A DNA stretch of 64,000 nucleotides from Bacteroidales bacterium. Lineage in GTDB: Bacteria > Bacteroidota > Bacteroidia > Bacteroidales > BM520. Positions within the stretch are counted from its first letter, which is position 1. Each line of letters starts with the position of its first letter. Positions 1-12,267 of the stretch are shown in pieces. Position numbers and translations under genes: made by a program. The DNA lies in the NCBI GenBank assembly GCA_050953245.1, contig JBMNMG010000003.1:111908-175907 (forward strand), written 5' to 3'. The notes under the pieces were generated by a model. It was not told the DNA's origin. It saw only the letters and a program-made list of their open reading frames with translations, and did no database searches.

Positions 1-162
1 TTTCTAACATTAAGTAGAAATAGAAAATTAGAAATAGAAGACCCCAAAGTAATTGAAACTTATCGCAAAAAACTAAGTGGATTTAATTACAATACCGAAC
101 TCGAACTCTTTCTTTCCACTGAACCTAAAGTTGAATATATTAGAGAAATCAAATTTGAATAA
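1..162 (+). CDS. 3' end of a CDS truncated by the window edge, product unknown
   Basis: Frame 1 is open from base 1 to TAA at 160-162 (FLTLSRNRKLEIEDPKVIETYRKK...IREIKFE*) and converges on the next gene. Not in the ORF track because it has no start. Confidence 0.5.
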   Translation, partial: FLTLSRNRKLEIEDPKVIETYRKKLSGFNYNTELELFLSTEPKVEYIREIKFE

Positions 163-169
163 AAAACAT

Positions 170-538
170 CTATAAACTCTCTAATACATTTATGAATATT
201 TTCTTACACTCATCTTTACCAACACTTACAGTGCCGTTTACCTCGTTATAGCAGCTGTCTGTATCCAGAGATTGCAATACACATTTGTAAGTATGTGTAC
301 CAACTTCAACTGACTGCATTACATTACCTTCTATACCACAATCAACTATAGAATCACAAGGATTGGTGAGTTCTCCAACATAAAGATCATCTATGTAAAC
401 AGATACTTTAACAGGGCAATTAACAATGTGATAATTTGAACCAAAAGACATTTGTCCAAATTCTTCTGAATTTTCTTTTTTGTCACATGATATAGTACAC
501 ACGACAATTACTAAACAACTTAAAATTACTTTTTTCAT
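170..538 (-). CDS. Small Cys-rich lipoprotein
   Basis: MKK + hydrophobic stretch + lipobox ISC followed by DKKE, a charged motif like Bacteroidetes surface-export signals. Confidence 0.8.
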   Translation of the reverse strand: MKKVILSCLVIVVCTISCDKKENSEEFGQMSFGSNYHIVNCPVKVSVYIDDLYVGELTNPCDSIVDCGIEGNVMQSVEVGTHTYKCVLQSLDTDSCYNEVNGTVSVGKDECKKIFINVLESL

Positions 539-887
539 AACTTTTTCTCCATATTTTATTTGTTTGTTATTATAATTGTTTTTTTCATTTTAAAATATTT
601 AAAAGTTATACATAAAAAATTATATATATCTTGTAATTAATAAAATGCGGTTTGTGCTTTTTCTTATCTTGTTTGTACCGTGAAGCAGAACGGAAACACA
701 GGGAGGTTATTTTACGGTTTACCAACTCAAGATCTATTCAAAGGTATAAAAAAAAACAATATAAAAAAACTTTTTTTTTAAGATTTTTCATTAAATATTT
801 TAGGCATTTTTTAAAATAATCAATTTATAAGGCTTATATATAGAGAAATAACTACCAACCTTTGATAAAAACGGTTTGCTGTATAAT

Positions 888-1155
888 TAGGGACATTCAT
901 TGATAAAAAAATAAAGCCAACTAAATCATTGTGAAATGGTTGGCTTTTTTTATATCTTTGGTCATTACCTTGTTTTAGTAGTAAACAACTCAAAAAGGGA
1001 GGGAACCAATAATAAAAGTGAGCTTTGTTGTCAAATTTTTGGTATAAAAAACAGAAATATACTAACAAAAAAGAAAAATACCTACAAAAATAAAAATGCA
1101 AGATTGAAATTGTTATCAATCTTGCTCTAAAATTTGAATTTAACGAATATCCCTA
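888..1155. mobile_element. MITE-like non-autonomous element, copy 1 (R1)
   Basis: Begins TAGGGACATTCATT and ends AACGAATATCCCTA (imperfect terminal inverted repeat). About 90% identical by eye to 7168-7434. Internal hairpins at 913-947 and 1098-1125. No transposase ORF. Confidence 0.75.
953..960 (+). promoter_or_regulatory. Bacteroidetes sigmaA-type -7 element inside R1
   Basis: TATCTTTG matches TAnnTTTG, with ATTG 21 nt upstream as a near -33 element. The same site in copy 2 is CATCTTTG. Confidence 0.45.
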
Positions 1156-1221
1156 TTTAGTCATTTATTTTTTTGGAATATCTTTGAAAAGATAGAGATT
1201 AAAGTAATATTTAACTTATGA
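1156..1221 (+). pseudogene. 3' remnant of a paralog of the 6664-7167 lipoprotein
   Basis: Translates FSHLFFWNIFEKIEIKVIFNL*, versus FSHLYFWDIFEKIENDITFNLTYN* at 7093-7167. 38 of the first 42 nt are identical. The 5' part is absent upstream of R1. Confidence 0.8.
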
Positions 1222-1240
1222 TTAATAAAAAAACAAATAA

Positions 1241-1428
1241 TTTTTAGTTGTAAAGATAATCTTTATGTGCTGCTTAATAAGTTTAATTTAAGGTAATTCT
1301 TTTTATTTATCAACCATTTAAAAAAACATTATTAAATAATGATAAAACTTAAAATTAAAAAAATGTTTATAAAAAAAAATAACTCTTAAGAATTTGATTA
1401 TTAATATTTTTATTGTAACTTAGCAAAA
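1241..1428 (+). repeat. Intergenic module B, copy 1 (decayed terminator + promoter)
   Basis: Shares TTTTTAGTTGTAAA.ATAATCTT, TAATGATAAAA and AATTTGATTATTAATAT.TTTA.TGTAA.TTAGCAAAA with 6483-6627. TTTG (1393-1396) lies 19 nt before TAACTTAG (1416-1423). Confidence 0.7.
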
Positions 1429-1547
1429 AATATATTAATATAATATTATTATTGCACAATACAATTATTTCTCAAGCTTTTAAGAAAGGAGGTTAAAAAA
1501 ATAGCTTGTGTAAAATTAACTTATTATTAATAATAAAAAAAATTACT

Positions 1548-2524
1548 ATGAAGAAAATTATTACATATAGAGCAATAATTTTGTTGTTTTTTATTGTCTC
1601 TATTTTCATAAGCAAACAACAATTACAAGCACAAAATACTGAATTTGCTCCTTAGGAGCCGAATGGTATTATAGTAGATCTTATATGACGACTCCTAATG
1701 AATTTATTTGGCTAAATTCTGTTATTGACACTATTATTAATGACAAGCATGCTAAAGGTGTTGATTTTTATAGTATGTATGGGACTCTGTTAATTAGTAG
1801 GGAATATATTTATAATAATGGTAAACAAGTATATTATTATAATGATAATTATGATGATTTTTTTCTTCTATATGATTTTGCTGCAAATATAGGTGATACT
1901 ATTATAGTTCACAATGATACATTTATTCCAACAAAAGGATTTTTTAATGATGATTTTCCTATTCCTAATGGTTTTAAATACATTATAGACGACATCGATA
2001 GTATAGAAATATTTGGTCAAAAACTTGTACGTCAAAAAGTAAGAGATGTTATTGATTGTGGTTGGGGAATGGTAAATGATGCTTACACTAATAATGGTAG
2101 ATCTTATATAATTGAGAACATTGGTTCATTATCATTTCTTATGGGAGTTGGTGATTATATAGTTTTAGAAGAAGAGCCTTTAATGTTGAGATGTTATATA
2201 GATGGTGAAAACACTTATACCAATCCATTATGGCAAAAACCTTGTGATTATGGACTTGCAATTGAAAATAACAAAACAGATAAATTAAACCTTGAAATAT
2301 ATCCCAATCCTTGTAACGAATATGTCTATATAAATTGCTTATCAGACAATATTAATATAATTAATATTGAAATAATGAGTTTGCATGGGAAAAAATTAAA
2401 TTCAGTTGTTTTTTCAAACAATATGCCAATACAAATTGATATGAGTTCATTAACTTCGGGTTGTTATTTTTTACATCTATTGACATCTCAAGGAAGTTAT
2501 TATAAAAAAATTGTTGTAAATTAA
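1548..2524 (+). pseudogene. T9SS-secreted protein, split by a 1-bp deletion near 1651
   Basis: The signal-peptide ORF 1548-1655 (MKKIITYRAIILLFFIVS...QAQNTEFAP*) joins frame 1685-2524 if one base is restored, giving FAPLGAEWYY. C-terminal T9SS type A domain (IYPNPCNEY...YYKKIVVN). Restored length 325 aa. Confidence 0.8.
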
Positions 2525-2536
2525 TATTAAAATACT

Positions 2537-5500
2537 ATGAAAACACGAAAATACTTTTTTATATTACTATTTTTAAGTTTAATCTTTTCACAGAAAATAT
2601 ATAGTCAATGTGATAGTTGTATATTTAAGAATGATGAACTTTGGTTATTAATAAAAAACGTTCAATTAAAAAATGATACAGGAGCAATGACAAATGATGA
2701 TGAATTAAATATAGTTTTAGAGCGTAACAATATTAATAATATATATAAAGTATTTCCATATTCTAAAGATACAATATTAAAAAAACTATATAAGATTTAT
2801 TTTAATAGTAACATTGATATTATTATTAGTGATTTAGAAAGTTGTAATAATATTGAAAAAATAATAAAACGTCCTAAAACTGAAATGATTGAATTATATG
2901 AGCCATCAGACTATATGTGGCATATATAAGATTCCATAAATCCAGATGGTTGGTTGTGGCACTTAAAAAAAATTCAAGCAGATAAAGCTTGGGATATTAC
3001 AAAAGGAGATAGTTCTGTCAAAATCGCAGTAATTGATACTTGGGTAGATATAGAACATCCTGATCTAATTAACAAAGTTTATCCCAAATTTGATCCATAT
3101 GATAGTACATTATATAGCTCTGATTGTGGTCATAGTCCACATGGAACAACTGTGGCAAGTTTTGTTGCAGCAGAAACAGATGGTGGTGGTGAATTATCAG
3201 CTATTGGGTTTAATTGTATGATGATTTTTTATCAAGCATTTAATGGTAATTATATTGAAAAAGCTCATCATGCTTCATTAGCAATGAATGCTGACGTATT
3301 AACTTCATCAGCAGGAGGCTGGACTTGTTCTTCTGATATTGATGAATATGAAAAAATTGCTGTGAAAGAAATATTAGATAATGGAACAGTTATCGTTATG
3401 CCTGCAGGAAATGGCGATAGTGGTGTCCATTGTAAATATAATGGTAGACATAGAGCTTTTAAGCCTCTAAGTTCAGAATATGATGATCGAATAATATTAG
3501 TATCAAGCACTAATAAAGATGATAATCATACTTTTATCCAAAATGGAATAGATAAAACTCATTCGCATTATGATGAGGTTGATATATGTGCTCCAGGATA
3601 TGAAACCATGGGTGCAATTCCAACTAAAAAATATGAAAGTTTACATAATTGCATCTCGGTATGGCCATATTTTGGAAATTGTATAGGAACGTCATTTTCA
3701 TCTCCAATAGTTGCAGGAGTATGTGGTTTAATAAAATCAATAAATAAAGATTATACACCTGGTGAAATTGAGTATTTTATTAAATCTACAGCAGATGTAA
3801 TAAATGATTGTGATAACTATCCAAATGGTGTCGGTTCTGGTAGAATAAATGCTTACAAAGCAATACAATTAGCAGATAATTGTCAACCAAGTGAAATTTA
3901 TAATACAACTGTTTGGGAAAATGACACTTCTATTGTTTGCGGTTTTATTGTTAAAAATAATGCAACTTTAACATTAAAAGGTAAAGTTAAAGTGTCTAAT
4001 AAATGTAATATTATTGTAGAGCCGGGAGGAAAATTAATTTTAGATGGTACTTTATTGACTAGTTTAGATAATACCATGTGGCAGGGCATTCAAGTTTTGG
4101 GGAGATAGCGATTCACCACAAACATTAGTAAATGGAGAATATAAGCAAGGTTACGTTGAGTTAAAAAATGGTGCTATAATTGAAAATGCTATTTGTGCAT
4201 TAGATTTATGGAATCCTAATGATATTAATTCTACAGGTGGTATAGTGCATGCAACAGATGCTATTTTCCGTAATAATACTCGTTCTGTTCATGCTTTACT
4301 TTATGATAATAAACCTGATAGTGCTAATGATGGAAGAATATTAAGTTATAATGGTTATTTTAACAATTGTACTTTTGAGCTAAATAATGATTATATAGGC
4401 ACTGAAATATTTCACAAGCACGTTGATTTATCTAATGTTAAAGGTATAAAATTTACAGGTTGCGATTTTATTAATACTTGTACCGATTATGATAAAATAT
4501 CATATTGGAATACAGCAATTGCAATGTATAATGCAAGTTCCATAATTAAAGGTAAAACTGTAGTTTATGATCCAACAAATTGTACAGATAGTACAAACTT
4601 TAGCGGTTTTTATAGTGGTATTAATTCCGTTAACGATTTATCTTTACCGGCTACTTTAACAGTAAAACATGCTAATTTTACAAATAATGCTTTTGGTATT
4701 AAAATGTCTAATAATAGCTATTCTTCTATTTTATTCTCCAATTTTTTAATAGGTAGATTATGGGATTGTGGAGGAGGTATTTATTCTCAATCAATCAATA
4801 ATTTTAAGATTGAAGAAAATCATTTTTCTAAATTTACTCCTATCCCAAATGTTAATTTTTATGGTATTATAATGGATGATTCGAAAGGTGTTAATAATAT
4901 CTACCGTAATACGTTTAACGGTTTAACATATGGCAATTTTGCAAAAAACAAAAACTGGGTTGGTAATAATACTTTTGAAGGTTTAGAATATACTTGTAAT
5001 ACTAACATTAATAATAGTTGTGATTTTTATGTTGTCGATAATGCGACAGGAGCTTCAGGTATCCAAGCATTTCAAGGTAATGAAAATAAACCAGCAGGTA
5101 ATACTTTTAGTGATAGTAGAATTAAATGGCATTTTTATAATGGAGGTGATCATTTGATAGAATATTTTTATAATAGAAATATTAACTCTCAAATTCCTAA
5201 TTCTAATTTAATAAATGAAAAGGTAATACTTACACCTACAGATACATGTAATGCATGTTTATCTCATTATGAATATGTAGGAAACGATGATGATATTTTA
5301 CGTGGTGAAGAACGTTTAGCTAAAGAACAAGAATATTATGATGCATATAACAATTATACTAATATAAAAACATTATATGATAGAAGTATAGATGGAGGTG
5401 ATACAGAAGGTGAAATTCGTGATATCGAGACTGCTCAACCGGAAGACATGTGGCAGTTACGTACACAATTATTAGGTCATTCTCCTCATTTATCACAAGA

Positions 5501-6458
5501 AGTGTTAATAGAAGCCTCTGATCGTTCTGATATATTTATTGAATCTGTATTATTTGAGATTTTATCAGCTAACCCTGATGAATTGAGAAAAGACAGTTTA
5601 ATCAATTATTTGGAAAATAAAGAAACTCCCTTACCAGATTACATGATAGAATTATTAAAACAAATAGCAACAGGTAGTACGGCAAAAACTGCTTTGCAAA
5701 AACAAATGAGTACTTATAAACTACAATATTCACAAGCTGCAATGGAGTTAATTAGAAGTATATTAAATGATACAGTCTTAAATTTAGTAGATTTAAGAAA
5801 CTGGCTTGATAATCTTGGAGGATTAAATTCAGATAGACAAATAATTGCAACATATATTTACGAGGATGATTATAGTAATGCTTTATCTTTAGCAAACATG
5901 CTACCTTCATTATATAATTTATCTGAACGTGAATTAATAGAGCATAATCAATATATGCAAATATTAACTTTATATCAAACATTGTATAATAGTAATAGAA
6001 CTATATATGAGTTAAATAATGAAGAAAAAGCAATAATAACAGACTTTGCAGATAATGGTATTGGTATAGCGCAATCTATGGCAAAAGCAATAATGATCGG
6101 GGTTTATAATTCTACTGATTATTATGATGATTGCCCTATAGTTACAGAAAAACGGGGTGAAAGCCACTTAAAACCAGTAAATCCAAATAATTTGTCAGGA
6201 GCTTTAGGACTATCTATAAGTGCTAACCCAAATCCAGCAGTGTTATGGACAGCTTTTGATTATAAATTACCAGAATCAAAAACAAATGCAATAATAACTA
6301 TTACCAATATGATGGGTAAAATAGTAGATAAGATTGAAATTTATGATCAACAAGGACAAGTAGTATGGGATACTCGTAATGTTCCATCGGGGATTTATTT
6401 ATATACTATACAATGTGATAATTTAGTATTATCAGATAAAATTATTATTAAAAAGTAG
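2537..6458 (+). pseudogene. Large T9SS-secreted S8 (subtilisin-like) serine peptidase, disrupted by an in-frame TAA (2927-2929) and a +1 frameshift (TTTT at 4095-4098)
   Basis: ORFs 2537-2929 and 2954-4108 are in the same frame. Catalytic motifs IAVID, HGTTVA, PAGN and GTSFSSP are present. Removing one T gives WQGIQVWGDSD...QGYVELKNGAIIENA, continuous into 4245-6458, which ends in a T9SS CTD (NPNPA...SGIYLYTI...KIIIKK). Restored length 1306 aa. Confidence 0.8.
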
Positions 6459-6482
6459 TGAGTTAACATCGAAAATTTAATT

Positions 6483-6627
6483 TTTTTAGTTGTAAATATA
6501 ATCTTAAGGAGCTGTCTAATAAATTTAAGACAGCTCTTTATATCTTAACACTTAAAAAACTATTAAAAAATAATGATAAAATTTTTAAAAAATTTGATTA
6601 TTAATATCTTTAATGTAATTTAGCAAA
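6483..6627 (+). repeat. Intergenic module B, copy 2 (terminator + promoter)
   Basis: Homologous to 1241-1428. TTTG (6593-6596) lies 19 nt before TAATTTAG (6616-6623). Confidence 0.7.
6509..6536 (+). terminator. Probable intrinsic terminator after the S8 gene
   Basis: Perfect 9-bp stem GAGCTGTCT/AGACAGCTC followed by a short T run. Confidence 0.65.
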
Positions 6628-6663
6628 ATAATTTAGAAATTGAATGATTTTAAAACAGATAAT

Positions 6664-7167
6664 ATGAAAAAGAAAAACAGTAAAAAGAGCTATTCAACAT
6701 TAATTAGCACAATGTTGATCTTATTATTTATTCCTTTTATCTCATGTAAGAAAACTAATAATGAAACTGTAATAGCAAATCAAAATAATCTTCTTGATAA
6801 AGCAATTACAGAACAATTAGACAGTTTGTTTTCTCCCGAAAATGATAAATTATTTGATAAATTAGGAGGCGATACTTTATTTTATGTAATTAACTCACAA
6901 GAAGAGTGGTTAGAATTAGATATTTGTGATGAAATAGATATAGATTTTAACAAATATACATTAATTTTTGGAAGAGTTCCTTCTACGAGTTCACCTTCAG
7001 AAATAACAAAGAAAGAATTGGTTTATGATGAAGAAACAGATTTATATACATACAACGTAGAAGTATTTGTTAATCCCGATGGATATACTGCATTTAGTCA
7101 TTTATATTTTTGGGATATCTTTGAAAAAATTGAGAATGATATAACATTTAATTTAACTTATAATTAA
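6664..7167 (+). CDS. Lipoprotein of unknown function
   Basis: The ATG at 6664 is preferred over the TTG at 6640. Basic N-terminus, hydrophobic stretch, lipobox ISC then KK. Confidence 0.8.
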   Translation: MKKKNSKKSYSTLISTMLILLFIPFISCKKTNNETVIANQNNLLDKAITEQLDSLFSPENDKLFDKLGGDTLFYVINSQEEWLELDICDEIDIDFNKYTLIFGRVPSTSSPSEITKKELVYDEETDLYTYNVEVFVNPDGYTAFSHLYFWDIFEKIENDITFNLTYN

Positions 7168-7434
7168 TTGGACATTCATTAATTAAAAAAATAAAGCCAA
7201 CTAAATCATTGTGAAATAGTTGGTTTTTTTTACATCTTTGGTCATTACCTCGTTTTAGTAGTAAACAACTCAAATAGGGGGTAACCAATAACATAAGTGG
7301 CATTGTTGTCAAATTTTTGGTATAAAAAACAGAAATATACTAACCAAAAAGAAAAAACACCCACAAAAATAAAAAAGCAAGACTGAAATAGTTATCAATC
7401 TTGCCCTAAAATTTGAATTTAACGAATGTCCCTA
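7168..7434. mobile_element. MITE-like non-autonomous element, copy 2 (R2), same orientation as R1
   Basis: Begins TTGGACATTCATT immediately after the lipoprotein stop codon and ends AACGAATGTCCCTA. About 20 differences from R1 by eye. Confidence 0.75.
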
Positions 7435-7435
7435 T

Positions 7436-7470
7436 TAAGTCCTCAATATATTTGAATATTGGAGGACTTA
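7436..7470. terminator. Hairpin terminator between the cargo region and convergent truA
   Basis: TAAGTCCTC...GAGGACTTA stem extended by AATAT/ATATT, followed by a T run on the + strand. Confidence 0.7.
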
Positions 7471-7540
7471 TTTTTTTATTAAAATGTACTTTACTACTTA
7501 ATCAAAGATTTTATTAAAAAGTAATATTTAAACTTGATTC

Positions 7541-8320
7541 TTATAATTCTCTAAATACATTTCCGTAATCAACATCTACTAAAGTCAGTCCTTGCGGAGG
7601 AACCGACATTCCGGCATTAGATCTATTTTTACTTTCAATAATTTGTTTGAACTCATCGAGAGTGATTTTTTCCCTTCCAACATTAATTATAGTTCCACAA
7701 ATAGCTCTAACCATACCTCTTAAAAACCTATCAGCAGTTATTGAAAAGGTAATAATATGGTTTTGTTTTTCCCAGTTGGCATGAGAAATTTTACAGAGAT
7801 TGGTGTTATTGTCGCTTCCTGTTTTTGCAAAAGAAGAAAAGTCCGAATAATCATAAAGTATTTTAGATGCTTTATTCATTAACTCCAAATCCAGATTTGC
7901 TTGAAGTTTATATGATGTAGTGTAAAGAAAAGGGTCTTTTTGGTTGATTATTCTGTAATTATATGTCCGTGATAGGGCTGAGAATCTGGCATGAATATCT
8001 TCATTTACAGGTTCTAAGATTTTTTCTATTTTAATATCTTCAGGAAGAATTCCATTTAGCTTGTAAAGAAAATTCTGTGTATTATTGTAAATATTCTCTT
8101 TTATAACATTATCTTTATCTTCATCTAAATCAAAATGTAAAAAATATTTAGATGCATGAACACCTGTATCGGTTCTACCACATCCAATAACACTTATTTT
8201 TTTTTGTAATAATAAAGATAACCCTTTTTCTATTTCTTGTTGAACAGAATTGCTATTAGGCTGTATTTGCCATCCATGATAGTTAGATCCGTTATATTGT
8301 AATTGTAAAAATAATCGCAT
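7541..8320 (-). CDS. truA: tRNA pseudouridine(38-40) synthase TruA
   Basis: YNGSNYHGWQIQPN and GCGRTDTGVHA motifs. ATG at 8320 sits just after the upstream stop. Confidence 0.95.
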   Translation of the reverse strand: MRLFLQLQYNGSNYHGWQIQPNSNSVQQEIEKGLSLLLQKKISVIGCGRTDTGVHASKYFLHFDLDEDKDNVIKENIYNNTQNFLYKLNGILPEDIKIEKILEPVNEDIHARFSALSRTYNYRIINQKDPFLYTTSYKLQANLDLELMNKASKILYDYSDFSSFAKTGSDNNTNLCKISHANWEKQNHIITFSITADRFLRGMVRAICGTIINVGREKITLDEFKQIIESKNRSNAGMSVPPQGLTLVDVDYGNVFREL

Positions 8321-8322
8321 CC

Positions 8323-10041
8323 TTAGCTGCAAGTGGAAATAGAGTTATTAACGTTTTGAATAATATCACCAATACGTTCACAAGTTGTAAATAATTCGCT
8401 ATATGTATTGCAAACGGCAAAATTTATATCATTATCATTTTGAATAGCTTCTGCTACATTATTTTGTAATTTATCGCGAGTATTATTTACTATTTCTTCT
8501 AATTCATTTCCCTTTTCTAAGTTAATTAAATGGTAATCAGAAGATAAGTTGTGTAGTAAGTTTTTATAAGCTTCATTAATTGTTGAGATCATTTCCAACA
8601 AATCTTCTATCATTTTAGCAGAAAACTCCATTTTTTTCTCCACTTTATACTTATAAGTTCTAGTAAATTGATAACATCTATCTCCTATGCGTTCTAAGTC
8701 ATCAATTATTTTGAGCATAGCAAAAATCCTTTTAGATACAGCTTTACTAACATCACCATAATGATTTGTTTTGACTAAATATTTTGCAATTTCCTCTTGC
8801 ATCCTATCGGAAATTTCTTCATATTTATCCATCTTTTCAAAGTAAACATTTAACTCCTTCTCATTAGGTGTAGTTATCATTTGAGGCATTATTTTAATCA
8901 TTTTATAGATTTGTTGAGCCATAAACTCAATTTCTTTTTTAGCTTGAATAGTAGCAAACTCAGTAGTTGAAATAATACCTTGAGATATAAATTTTAATCT
9001 AAACTCATCGTCTGTATCTTTATCCTTAATTATCTTAGTAACTATTTTAGCAATCCAATCAACGAACCAGATTAATATGAATGTGTTAATAACATTAAAG
9101 CTTGTATGGAAAATAGATAATGCTATTGGCAAATTAGCTCTGGTTACTGCAGAAGTTAAATCGGCACCTATAATGGAAGAACCGGTTATGGAAATCATAA
9201 CTTTATCTATTAAATTAAGGAATGGGAAAAAGACTATTAACATCCATATAGCCCCGAAGATATTAAAGAAAACATGCCCCAATGCTGCTCGTTTTGCTTG
9301 TTTATTTGCTATTAAAGCAGCTATATTTGCTGTAATGGTAGTACCGATATTTTCCCCAAGTACCATAGCTGCGGCACAGTGAAAAGGTATAACTCCATTA
9401 AAACATAAAACAAGAGTTAATGCCATAGTAGCACTCGAGGATTGTAATATTATTGTTAATATAGTACCTACTAATACAAAAAACAAAACGGACCAGTAAT
9501 TTGCATTAGCAAAATTTCCTAAAAATGCAAACATTTCAGGGTTTTGTTCTATATTTGGGATAGTATCTGTCAAAAATTGTAGTCCGATAAAAATTAATCC
9601 AAACCCAATTAATGTTTCTGCAATAAATGTGTTTTTTTCTTTTTTCGAAAATAGTAATGGTAATGCAAGTCCAATAATAGGTAGAGAAACTACAGACATA
9701 GATACTTTAAAACCTAAAATAGAAACTATCCATGCAGTTACTGTAGTTCCAATATTTGCCCCCATAATAATACTAATAGCACCTGTTAATGATAACAATC
9801 CTGCGTTCACAAAACTGACAATCATAACGGTGGTCGCCGATGACGACTGGACAACTGTAGTAATTAAAAAACCTGTTAAAACTCCTTTAAATTTATTGGA
9901 AGTCATTTTGTATAAAATTGCTCGCATTTTATTACTTGCAATCTTTTGTAGGGAGTCGCTTAGAAGTTTTATTCCGAATATAAAGATACATAGAGAACCT
10001 AATAGTACTAATATAAATTGGACTACTTCGAAAAAAGACAT
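8323..10041 (-). CDS. Na+/Pi cotransporter (NptA family) with PhoU-like C-terminal domain
   Basis: Duplicated QSSSAT...GANIGTT / GENIGTT motifs and a helical C-terminal domain with DLERIGD. Confidence 0.9.
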   Translation of the reverse strand: MSFFEVVQFILVLLGSLCIFIFGIKLLSDSLQKIASNKMRAILYKMTSNKFKGVLTGFLITTVVQSSSATTVMIVSFVNAGLLSLTGAISIIMGANIGTTVTAWIVSILGFKVSMSVVSLPIIGLALPLLFSKKEKNTFIAETLIGFGLIFIGLQFLTDTIPNIEQNPEMFAFLGNFANANYWSVLFFVLVGTILTIILQSSSATMALTLVLCFNGVIPFHCAAAMVLGENIGTTITANIAALIANKQAKRAALGHVFFNIFGAIWMLIVFFPFLNLIDKVMISITGSSIIGADLTSAVTRANLPIALSIFHTSFNVINTFILIWFVDWIAKIVTKIIKDKDTDDEFRLKFISQGIISTTEFATIQAKKEIEFMAQQIYKMIKIMPQMITTPNEKELNVYFEKMDKYEEISDRMQEEIAKYLVKTNHYGDVSKAVSKRIFAMLKIIDDLERIGDRCYQFTRTYKYKVEKKMEFSAKMIEDLLEMISTINEAYKNLLHNLSSDYHLINLEKGNELEEIVNNTRDKLQNNVAEAIQNDNDINFAVCNTYSELFTTCERIGDIIQNVNNSISTCS

Positions 10042-10072
10042 AATTTAATTATTTAGTTAAATTTAGTAATTG

Positions 10073-10080
10073 CAAATATA
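10073..10080 (-). promoter_or_regulatory. -7 promoter element for the Na/Pi-truA unit
   Basis: TATATTTG on the minus strand, ~30 nt before the ATG. Confidence 0.55.
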
Positions 10081-10240
10081 AAAAAAATAACATATTATAA
10101 TAATATTCTGAAGTAAAGTTCCAAATAAATAACTAACAATTTGTAAAAATGAAGATTACTTATAGTAATATTTTTTTTTAAATGAATTTGAGTAAATTTA
10201 GAATTGCATTAAAATTTCTTTAAATAGATAAAAATATTAT

Positions 10241-10248
10241 TATTTTTG
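10241..10248 (+). promoter_or_regulatory. -7 promoter element for the DUF4954-GT4 unit
   Basis: TATTTTTG ~36 nt before the ATG. Confidence 0.5.
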
Positions 10249-10284
10249 CATGTAAAGTTAGGAAATGTTTAATTAATTTTTCAA

Positions 10285-12267
10285 ATGGCAAAATACAGAG
10301 ATATTTCTTCAGCAGAAATAGAAGTTTTAGAGAAACAGCATTGTAGATGTGATGATTGGAGTTTAATAAAAGTAGTAGATGGTTTTAATCCTCATACTAT
10401 CAGAAATGTGAATTTTTCGGGAGATGTTAAGTTGGGATGTTTTGAAAAGGAGTTTGAATTAAAAAGTAAAATTATAAAGAAATCCGGTATATATAATGCT
10501 ACTATACATAATTGTACTATAGAAGATAATGTATATATTAATCAAATAAGAAGTTATATTGCTAATTATCATATAGAAAAAGAAGTTTACTTAGATAATG
10601 TAGATATTTTAGCTGTAGAAGATAATCCTGCTTTTGGGAATGGCACAGAAGTTAGTTCTATTTGTGAAACAGGAGGTAGAGAAGTTTATATTTATGACTA
10701 TTTATCGAGTCAAACCGCATATGTATTAGCAATGTATAGAGATAATAAAAAATTAGTTAATTCTCTTAATAAGTTGATTTTAGATTATGCTGAGTCCAAA
10801 AAGTCTTATGTGGGAAGGATAGGAACTAAAACTATTATTAATAACTGTAGAACTATCAAAAATGTTTTATTTGGAGAATATGCCACTGTAGAAAATGTTT
10901 TCCTTTTAGAAAACGGATCAGTGAACAGTACTATAGAAGACAAAACTTATGTAGGTTTTGGAGTTATAGCCAAAGATTTTATAATTTCACCCGGTGCTTA
11001 CGTTTCCGATAGTACTTATATTGACCATTGTTTCATTGGACAAGGTTGTGTTTTAGCGAAACAATATTCTGCCGAACATTCTTTATTTTTTGCGAATTGC
11101 GCAGGATATCACGGAGAAGCTTGTGCAGTTTTTGCCGGACCTTTTACAGTTACTCATCATAAGAGTTCTTTATTAATAGCAGGTTATTTTTCCTTTATGA
11201 ATACCGGATCAGGATCTAACCAAAGTAACCATATGTATAAATTAGGACCTATTCACCAAGGGATATTGGAAAGAGGTACAAAAACCACTTCAAATTCATA
11301 TGTTTTATGGCCTGCTAAAGTTGGGGCCTTTTCTGTAATTGTCGGAAGACACTTATCTCACCCGGATACTGATAAATTGCCATTTTCTTATTTAATAGAG
11401 GAAGCAAACGAAACTATTTTAGTTCCGGGAGTCAATTTACAAAGTATCGGAACAGTTAGAGACATGTATAAATGGCCAAAGAGAGATAAACGTAATCCAA
11501 AGAAAAAGATTGATTGTATTAACTTTAATTTGCTTTCTCCATACGTAGGAGAGAAAATTTTAAAAGGATTAAAGATTTTAAAAGATTTTGAATCGTTTGA
11601 GACAACATCTACATGGTTTAAATATAATAATGTGAAAATTAAGAGTGAGAGTTTAAGAAAGGGGATATCTTTATATGAAATTGCTCTTTATAAACATATT
11701 GGAGAGTTATTAGCAGATAGATTAAAAAATAACAAATTTGAAAGTTTAGATGAAATTAAAACAATATTAAAGCCAACAGGAGATATTGGAGTAGGTGATT
11801 GGGTAGATGTTGGGGGTATGTTTGCCCCAAAATCGGAAATTCTTAAAATAATAAGTAAAATAATTTCTAATAACTTGCCATTAAAAGATATTAATAAAGA
11901 ATTTAGAAGGGTATATTTTAATTACAATGAATATGAGTGGAATTGGGCATATTTTACCTTAGAAAAAATTAGAGATAAAAAAATAGATGAATTTTCTATA
12001 GAAAATTTTGTAGATGTTTTAACTAAGTGGATAGAATCAGAAAATAGATTAGGTGAATTAATTTGTAAGAATGCCGATAAAGAATTTTCAAAAATCTCTA
12101 AAATTAGTTTTGGTATAGATGGTGGAGAAGAAGAAATAAGAAAAGATTTTAATAATATAAGAGGAAATATTAATTCTAATCCGGATATTATACAGTTTAA
12201 AGCAAATTTAAAGGAATTAAATAAATTATATGCAGATTTAATAGTTAAGTTAAATAAAGCTAAATAA
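10285..12267 (+). CDS. DUF4954 family protein
   Basis: Recognised family pattern (N-terminal C.CDDWS, beta-helix-like repeats, GSGSNQSNHMYKLGPIHQG). Confidence 0.8.
   Translation: MAKYRDISSAEIEVLEKQHCRCDDWSLIKVVDGFNPHTIRNVNFSGDVKLGCFEKEFELKSKIIKKSGIYNATIHNCTIEDNVYINQIRSYIANYHIEKEVYLDNVDILAVEDNPAFGNGTEVSSICETGGREVYIYDYLSSQTAYVLAMYRDNKKLVNSLNKLILDYAESKKSYVGRIGTKTIINNCRTIKNVLFGEYATVENVFLLENGSVNSTIEDKTYVGFGVIAKDFIISPGAYVSDSTYIDHCFIGQGCVLAKQYSAEHSLFFANCAGYHGEACAVFAGPFTVTHHKSSLLIAGYFSFMNTGSGSNQSNHMYKLGPIHQGILERGTKTTSNSYVLWPAKVGAFSVIVGRHLSHPDTDKLPFSYLIEEANETILVPGVNLQSIGTVRDMYKWPKRDKRNPKKKIDCINFNLLSPYVGEKILKGLKILKDFESFETTSTWFKYNNVKIKSESLRKGISLYEIALYKHIGELLADRLKNNKFESLDEIKTILKPTGDIGVGDWVDVGGMFAPKSEILKIISKIISNNLPLKDINKEFRRVYFNYNEYEWNWAYFTLEKIRDKKIDEFSIENFVDVLTKWIESENRLGELICKNADKEFSKISKISFGIDGGEEEIRKDFNNIRGNINSNPDIIQFKANLKELNKLYADLIVKLNKAK

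Follow-up and report, generated by a model that had tools for sequence, protein, structure and literature searches.

Two direct repeats beside broken secreted-protease genes in a Bacteroidales genome are miniature derivatives of a common IS5-like insertion sequence

A stretch of 64,000 nucleotides from a Bacteroidales genome (assembly GCA_050953245.1, contig JBMNMG010000003.1, positions 111,908 to 175,907), which we call the window, contains two similar repeats, R1 (888-1155) and R2 (7167/7168-7434), with genes for secreted proteins between them. Have these repeats carried the genes to this locus as a single mobile unit, or did each of them arrive separately? The initial annotation proposed a composite transposon: R1 would have been inserted in a lipoprotein gene somewhere else, and R1, the cargo and R2 would then have moved here together, mobilised by a transposase acting in trans. 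We find that both repeats are miniature inverted-repeat transposable elements (MITEs) of an IS5-like insertion sequence (IS) common in Bacteroidales, and that they were probably inserted separately. The genome, G000, has 2.14 Mb in 9 contigs and about 30% GC, and its assembly is 97% complete. The titles of related metagenome-assembled genomes (MAGs) and the metadata of sequencing runs place it in anaerobic digesters and landfills. The window corresponds to G000:C3:111908-175907; positions without a contig prefix are window coordinates.

R1 and R2 are direct repeats, identical in 245 of 270 aligned columns (90.7%). The outer end of R1, TAGGGACATTC (888-898), and the outer end of R2, GAATGTCCCTA (7424-7434), are perfect inverted partners, with 13 of 14 matches when extended. 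The direct orientation and these ends had been described in the initial annotation and they hold, as does the lack of a transposase: none is found between R1 and R2 in a Pfam search, and no open reading frame (ORF) with a Pfam match lies inside the elements, whose size is 264-268 bp. They are thus short, below the approximate limit of 500 bp usual for MITEs, and have no transposase gene. The core of R1 (890-1153, plus strand) runs from GGGACATTC to GAATATCCC, and both termini match the consensus of the family described below. The core of R2 (7170-7432, plus strand) has the same architecture, with a damaged left tip and a perfect right end, GAATGTCCC. The left module of R1 contains a terminator-like hairpin (913-947), the right module another one (1098-1125), which looks like a terminator when the minus strand is read. 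An Rfam scan of positions 1-12000 (E <= 1) gives no RNA family.

These repeats belong to a larger family. A BLAST search of the whole genome detects about 20 further copies, full or partial, on 5 contigs. Chance is far from explaining such a repeat. In a multiple alignment, the flanks of these copies diverge exactly at TAGGGAYATTC... and ...GAATRTCCCTA, so the boundaries are at the inverted ends, as proposed. The copies are dispersed and have unrelated flanks, as is expected for MITEs. Some of them are short versions of 97-101 bp which keep both ends (C5:184018-184118, C8:238299-238395), others have lost the middle part (C2:479411-479596, C2:481582-481768), and many are fragments with only one module. 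Among all copies in this genome, the full 267-bp architecture is restricted to R1 and R2. These repeats are absent from 12 further genomes of the taxonomic family to which G000 belongs.

A genome-wide search of G000 finds no pair of terminal inverted repeats (TIRs) of this type enclosing a transposase. The only transposase remnants are two, an N-terminal one at C5:187444-187704 and a C-terminal one at C3:103907-103960. The latter is inside another copy, MITE_A (C3:103850-104156). No intact cognate transposase exists in the assembly, and presumably the family is now immobile in this genome. As to the proposed action in trans, the outer ends are intact and a transposase may have been available in the past, but none is left in G000.

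The parent element has been found in other genomes. In a pattern scan, another MAG of the Bacteroidales, DUQG01 (G031), has the family at no fewer than eight of its contig ends; the interior of the element is unassembled there. At the start of one of its contigs an ORF terminates in ...ANAVKMIEKIEKKSLKQTA and a stop codon; this part is homologous to the 18 codons kept in MITE_A. The same type of scan in metagenomes gave one contig only, which ends inside the element. When 400 genomes of the order were searched at the DNA level, two intact elements were detected: One in G314 (L129:2672-4354, 1683 bp, transposase of 452 aa), the other in G182 (L130:2005-3704, 1700 bp, transposase of 453 aa). They share with the MITEs the termini AGGGAYATTC/GAATRTCCCT, the subterminal modules and the hairpins of the left module, so the TIRs are common to the MITEs and an autonomous element. 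The termini of the parent can be written as GGGAYATTC...GAATRTCCC, and it has insulating terminator hairpins at its two ends. A full-length IS with the same ends, which the initial annotation suggested looking for, is therefore available for comparison. It also corrects one claim, that both inner ends of the pair are damaged. The inner end of R2, TTGGACATTC (7168-7177), is indeed damaged, with three mismatches and TTGG instead of GGG, and it is the only one: The inner end of R1, GAATATCCC (1145-1153), is the family consensus, which ends every copy in G031, the intact copy in G182 and one end of the copy in G314.

The transposase passes the Pfam cut-offs for DUF772 (34.3 bits, cut-off 23.1) and DDE_Tnp_1_2 (33.5 bits, cut-off 29.2). 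Its best NCBIfam match is transpos_IS5_1, whose 167 bits fall below the cut-off of 275, while ISNCY_1 gives 105 bits. More than 6400 homologues are known, and proteins with 87% identity are found in Phocaeicola vulgatus and Parabacteroides distasonis. According to these domains and homologues, R1 and R2 are MITEs of a common IS5-like IS of Bacteroidales, not of an IS630/Tc1 element; since the score is under the IS5_1 cut-off, the subgroup is left unassigned. The agreement with other Bacteroidales IS of the IS5 superfamily includes the TIRs and subterminal modules of the 1.68-1.70 kb copies, the last 18 transposase codons retained in MITE_A and short, AT-rich target duplications of 6 bp. The differences are that G000 has no intact copy and that R1 and R2 form a deletion subfamily with only two members.

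Another IS is abundant in G000, with 15 copies of 1.06 kb which are 92-97% identical (for example C1:45801-46852, C1:104495-105547, C5:32919-33971 and C5:132367-133418). We have rejected it as a parent: Its TIR, TATAGCTTTCYAAGCT, is unrelated to the MITE ends. Three of its copies directly adjoin MITE fragments of the family described here, which points to an insertion in MITEs or next to them. The genome also contains a very large region with internal repeats (C2:425000-457000), whose self-matches extend over 4-8 kb with 70-84% identity; it is probably a gene for a giant repeat protein or an array of genes.

The size of the target site duplication (TSD) has been established with copies outside G000. 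In G031, six of the eight left-end flanks have a right-end partner which shares exactly six bases with them: TTTGTA, AAAATA, TAAAAA (twice), TAGCAA and CAAGAA. In G314 the copy is flanked by TAAAAA at either end. The duplication is thus exactly 6 bp in all seven insertions of the family which can be scored, and the element proper is GGG...CCC with an AT-rich, 6-bp TSD. The initial annotation had suggested a TA-targeting family such as IS630/Tc1-mariner. There is some likeness, an AT-rich target and a TA beside the ends in many copies, but this TA is part of an AT-rich flank of 6 bp and not a 2-bp target duplication, and the transposase has DUF772 and DDE_Tnp_1_2 instead of DDE_3 or HTH_Tnp_Tc3. 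We have rejected this assignment. We have also rejected an analogy with the long TSDs of IS1202, a family defined by a TnsB-like transposase and TGT...ACA ends (PMC10132070); the ends are here GGG...CCC and the transposase is IS5-like.

Inside G000 the flanking hexamers are mostly similar to TAATTA, so unrelated pairs match equally well and comparisons of this kind have low power. With this limit, the left flank of R1, TAATTA (884-889), may be one copy of a 6-bp target duplication whose partner, TATTTA (1154-1159), matches in 5 of 6 positions; the same low-power comparison gives 5/6 for the copy at C5:184018 (TAATTA/TACTTA). For a composite transposon a target duplication around the pair would be expected. 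What is found is TAATTA on the left of R1 and TATTAA on the right of R2, a 4/6 match which is no better than that of unrelated copies.

Directly 3' of R1 there is a fossil of a lipoprotein paralog (1156-1225, plus strand), consisting of the last 21 codons and the stop, which translates to FSHLFFWNIFEKIEIKVIFNL. Its homologue is 7093-7167, where an intact lipoprotein gene ends (6640-7167, plus strand, 175 aa), with its stop codon at the R2 junction. Identity is 80.5% over 77 aligned bp (BLAST) and 84% over the first 64 nt. The initial annotation was right in describing a decapitated gene which abuts R1, and the 5' part, which it did not see to the left, is not detectable there: Local and anchored alignments give no significant homology there (p = 0.17-0.44). 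The left flank contains a small lipoprotein gene (170-538, minus strand, 122 aa), with an 82.5% identical paralog at C5:296218-296618. Downstream of the fossil, an AT-rich intergenic module (1241-1428, plus strand) resembles the region upstream of the intact lipoprotein gene (6483-6628), with 74-92% identity in blocks, as would be left by an earlier array of lipoprotein cassettes in tandem.

The remaining genes between the repeats are broken. The first one (1548-2524, plus strand) codes for a protein with a C-terminal sorting domain of the type IX secretion system (T9SS). It is frameshifted: An ORF with a signal peptide (1548-1655) is out of frame with an ORF of 279 aa (1685-2524). It is followed by an S8 subtilase gene with a T9SS sorting domain (2537-6458, plus strand), in which an in-frame stop (2927-2929) and a frameshift, located near 4105-4245, leave three ORFs of 130, 384 and 737 aa. 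The homologous genes of relatives consist of one ORF each, with 1097-1454 aa, and the same split ORFs are found in four independent assemblies; the lesions of both genes recur in several metagenome assemblies made independently. To judge from their sequence, these S8 and T9SS genes are pseudogenes, and the lipoprotein gene of 175 aa is the only part of the cargo which looks intact. The suggestion that MITEs were moving secreted enzymes does not agree with a cargo composed mostly of pseudogenes.

Nearly identical versions of the region are present in no fewer than 20 public metagenomes, which come from 15 or more studies. We have compared the contigs of 12 metagenome runs over C3:101500-121499. 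The joint from 887 to 7435 which an empty site would present, and whose search had been recommended, is absent from all 12. In fact, neither an empty site of R1, cargo and R2 nor a second copy of the unit is found in G000, in 13 genomes of the family or in the 12 metagenomes. One landfill run, X4, is different. In its major strain a 388-bp segment (817-1204: 71 bp, R1 and 49 bp) is missing, and position 816 joins 1205 with a 4-nt overlap, TAAT; in contig L139 (7831 bp, depth 12.8) the left flank and the cargo are contiguous without R1. The same run also holds a unitig specific for R1, with a depth of 5.4. Because it retains 21 nt of the fossil, we read the form without R1 as a secondary event, probably a microhomology deletion of 388 bp. 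The initial annotation had considered that finding the cargo at this locus without the repeats would point to independent insertions: The major strain of X4 does lack R1, but the R2 junction is present in this run. The junctions of R2 and of MITE_A with the hairpin described below are in fact present and identical in runs X1, X4, X5 and X8. In runs X8, X10 and X11, R1 is present, and there are no contigs at 95% identity or more for positions of about 1184-1490 (L138:11592-11897). When 97% is used, there is a loose end (AAATTTTATTAAAAATTAAAAGTCAAAATT), connected to position 1163; this is a strain variant. Depth dips to the right of truA were considered and discarded as an artefact; a focused comparison shows normal depth there.

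The outer junction of R2 has a different partner. Directly after R2 there is a terminator-like hairpin of 49 bp (7433-7481, plus strand, free energy -14.8 kcal/mol). A second copy is found at C3:103804-103851, directly before MITE_A, 15.5 kb upstream of R2 and 8.1 kb upstream of the start of the window. This sequence is present exactly twice in the genome. Both copies, which are 90% identical, abut outward-facing MITE ends: The duplication extends from the first base after the CCC of R2 to the last base before the GGG of MITE_A. Outside the hairpins the flanks (CAGTTT... and ...AAATG) are unrelated to one another. The pair looks like a target duplication or an att-like repeat. The outer junction of R2 is thus paired with the outer end of MITE_A and not with R1, and this is the strongest single argument against an insertion of R1, cargo and R2 as a unit.

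Four MITE copies are clustered in these 15.5 kb, a strong concentration for a family with about 20 copies in 2.1 Mb: R1, R2, MITE_A and a right-half copy (C3:108441-108562), the last two just upstream of the window and in the same orientation as R1 and R2. An S9-peptidase gene precedes the first hairpin, and truA (7541-8332, minus strand), a conserved gene of the right flank, follows the second one. Between the hairpins, after MITE_A, come a Methyltransf_24 gene, a T9SS gene of 984 aa, a DpnII-type restriction-modification system, the small lipoprotein gene, R1, the cargo and R2. The block contains no integrase, recombinase or replication gene. In two relatives of the same genus, G007 and G005, the order is S9 peptidase, DUF3078, DUF456 and truA; the peptidase gene is about 1.5 kb from truA, and only the DUF3078-like and DUF456-like genes are between them. 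G000 has neither of them in this interval. Even in the closest genomes, TruA is only about 62% identical, and an exact-protein look-up for TruA gave no record.

Two components of the block deserve a comment of their own. The DpnII-type cassette (C3:108889-112069, ending at 162 in the window) is complete: It codes for a D12 Dam-like methylase, a DpnII endonuclease, an unknown protein of 178 aa and an N4/N6 methylase. A 1-bp insertion has divided the DpnII gene of the landfill strain (L139) into ORFs of 104 and 184 aa. The Methyltransf_24 gene beside MITE_A (C3:104160-105055) has a second copy, 92% identical, at C8:65264-66158; the homology begins 5 nt past the degenerate right end of MITE_A.

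The explanation which we favour, and consider probable, is that R1 and R2 are dead IS5-like MITEs which were inserted separately in a decaying accessory block. Their subfamily would derive from a 1.7-kb IS5-like IS by internal deletion. Each member would have entered a lineage-specific block prone to insertions and deletions, in which local rearrangements may have left scars around both. The fossil would adjoin R1 as a result of an insertion in situ plus a deletion, not of carriage from elsewhere, and the outer junction of R2 would have been made in an event which duplicated the terminator hairpin and was tied to the outer end of MITE_A. Several observations weigh against this explanation. None of the four copies has an orthologous empty site, and even the closest genomes are as distant as indicated above, so the order and polarity of the insertions are only inferred; the X4 variant shows that R1 is dispensable, not that it came later. 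An identical 8-mer, TATAATTA, stands just outside the left end of both R1 and R2, and independent insertions can explain it only through a preference for targets similar to TAATTA. The fossil starts exactly at the end of R1, which requires an additional deletion or a coincidence. Finally, this explanation offers no mechanism for the 49-bp duplication.

The composite of the initial annotation can explain some of these features. The outer ends of R1 and R2 form a perfect pair while the inner end of R2 is damaged, and the direct orientation of the repeats makes the outer ends a valid combination of a left and a right end. A gene whose 5' part is undetectable to the left of R1 adjoins it, and the interior is slightly more AT-rich, with 26.7% GC instead of about 30%. 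MITE-bounded composites are known: Integron mobilisation units, MITE-flanked integrons of Enterobacter and Acinetobacter and the Tn3-derived TIME composites are examples, supported by a target duplication around the whole unit or by demonstrated mobilisation. R1 and R2 resemble them in being MITEs of the same family, in direct orientation, with passenger genes between them and outer ends which are inverted partners. They differ in that no duplication flanks the unit, the 49-bp duplication belonging to a larger pair of ends. Besides, the inner end of R1 is intact, the outer hexamers match no better than those of unrelated copies in a family which makes 6-bp duplications, neither an empty site nor a second unit appears in the genome or in 12 metagenomes, and one strain has the cargo without R1. 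A movement of R1, cargo and R2 as a unit is therefore very unlikely. It is also quite unlikely that R1 and R2 come from a local segmental duplication or from gene conversion in an array of lipoprotein cassettes, without transposition. The 8-mer shared by both copies, the lipoprotein 3' ends after R1 and before R2, the similar modules at 1241-1428 and 6483-6628 and the restriction of the full architecture to these two copies would agree with it. Nevertheless, the gene fragment is on opposite sides of R1 and R2, there is no significant homology to the left of R1, and hexamers similar to TAATTA flank many unrelated copies.

The hairpins allow two other explanations, both concerned with the whole block. 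According to one of them, an IS5-like transposase supplied in trans would have placed the 15.5 kb from MITE_A to R2 in the interval from the S9-peptidase gene to truA, with an abnormal stagger which duplicated the 49-bp hairpin instead of 6 bp. We consider this possible but doubtful. The duplication, whose limits are at the CCC of R2 and the GGG of MITE_A, is unique in the genome, the outer flanks are mutually unrelated as a target duplication predicts, and the relatives do not have the block in this interval. There is also a precedent: IS1634/IS1549, DDE elements which usually duplicate an AT-rich tract of 5-6 bp, can occasionally give repeats of 8-514 bp (PMC2266710). They may be an analogue, but no IS1634 model is among the NCBIfam matches of our transposase, and a long duplication is not seen in other copies of the family. 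The seven scorable insertions have exactly 6 bp, and MITE_A, which has a degenerate right end, is not the same deletion derivative as R2. The relatives, with two other genes in this interval, are too remote to stand for a real empty site. Hairpin geometry does not shrink 49 bp to 6 bp either; a cruciform origin of the repeat has been rejected, as a stem of about 35 nt leaves about 14 nt. That the real mobile unit is this 15.5-kb composite, bounded by MITE_A and R2, carrying the DpnII-type system and T9SS genes and flanked by a 49-bp target duplication which spans an intrinsic terminator hairpin, seems to us rather unlikely. The other explanation involves a circular DNA with one hairpin between R2 and MITE_A. 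Its integration at a chromosomal hairpin, of the Campbell type, either homologous or site-specific, would give the observed order of hairpin, block and hairpin. Direct repeats of about 50 bp with 90% identity are typical of att-like sites, the DpnII-type system and the methyltransferase are a cargo of the island type, and two MITE insertions around one hairpin, each with its 6-bp duplication, would reproduce exactly the limits of the repeats. We consider it unlikely: The block has no gene for integration, recombination or replication, both ends of the island would be MITE termini only by coincidence, and 49 bp is short for RecA-dependent integration.

In summary, MITEs of IS5-like elements and composites bounded by MITEs are already known, and the hairpin duplication is the only unusual feature of an otherwise ordinary variable block punctuated by MITEs. 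The initial proposal implied that pairs of MITEs ferry secreted enzymes between loci, which the evidence does not support. What is gained for the annotation is a definition of the termini and of the 6-bp TSD of the family, the identification of its parent IS and the recognition of the S8 and T9SS genes as pseudogenes. The wider interest of the locus rests on the exact duplication of a 49-bp hairpin which brackets a MITE-bounded block of 15.5 kb. If this block was inserted as a whole, it would represent a hairpin-associated integration with a long stagger, undescribed for this type of transposase. The general picture is that of a small, IS-ridden Bacteroidales genome from anaerobic digesters, in which dead MITEs of a very common IS mark an accessory block prone to insertions and deletions.

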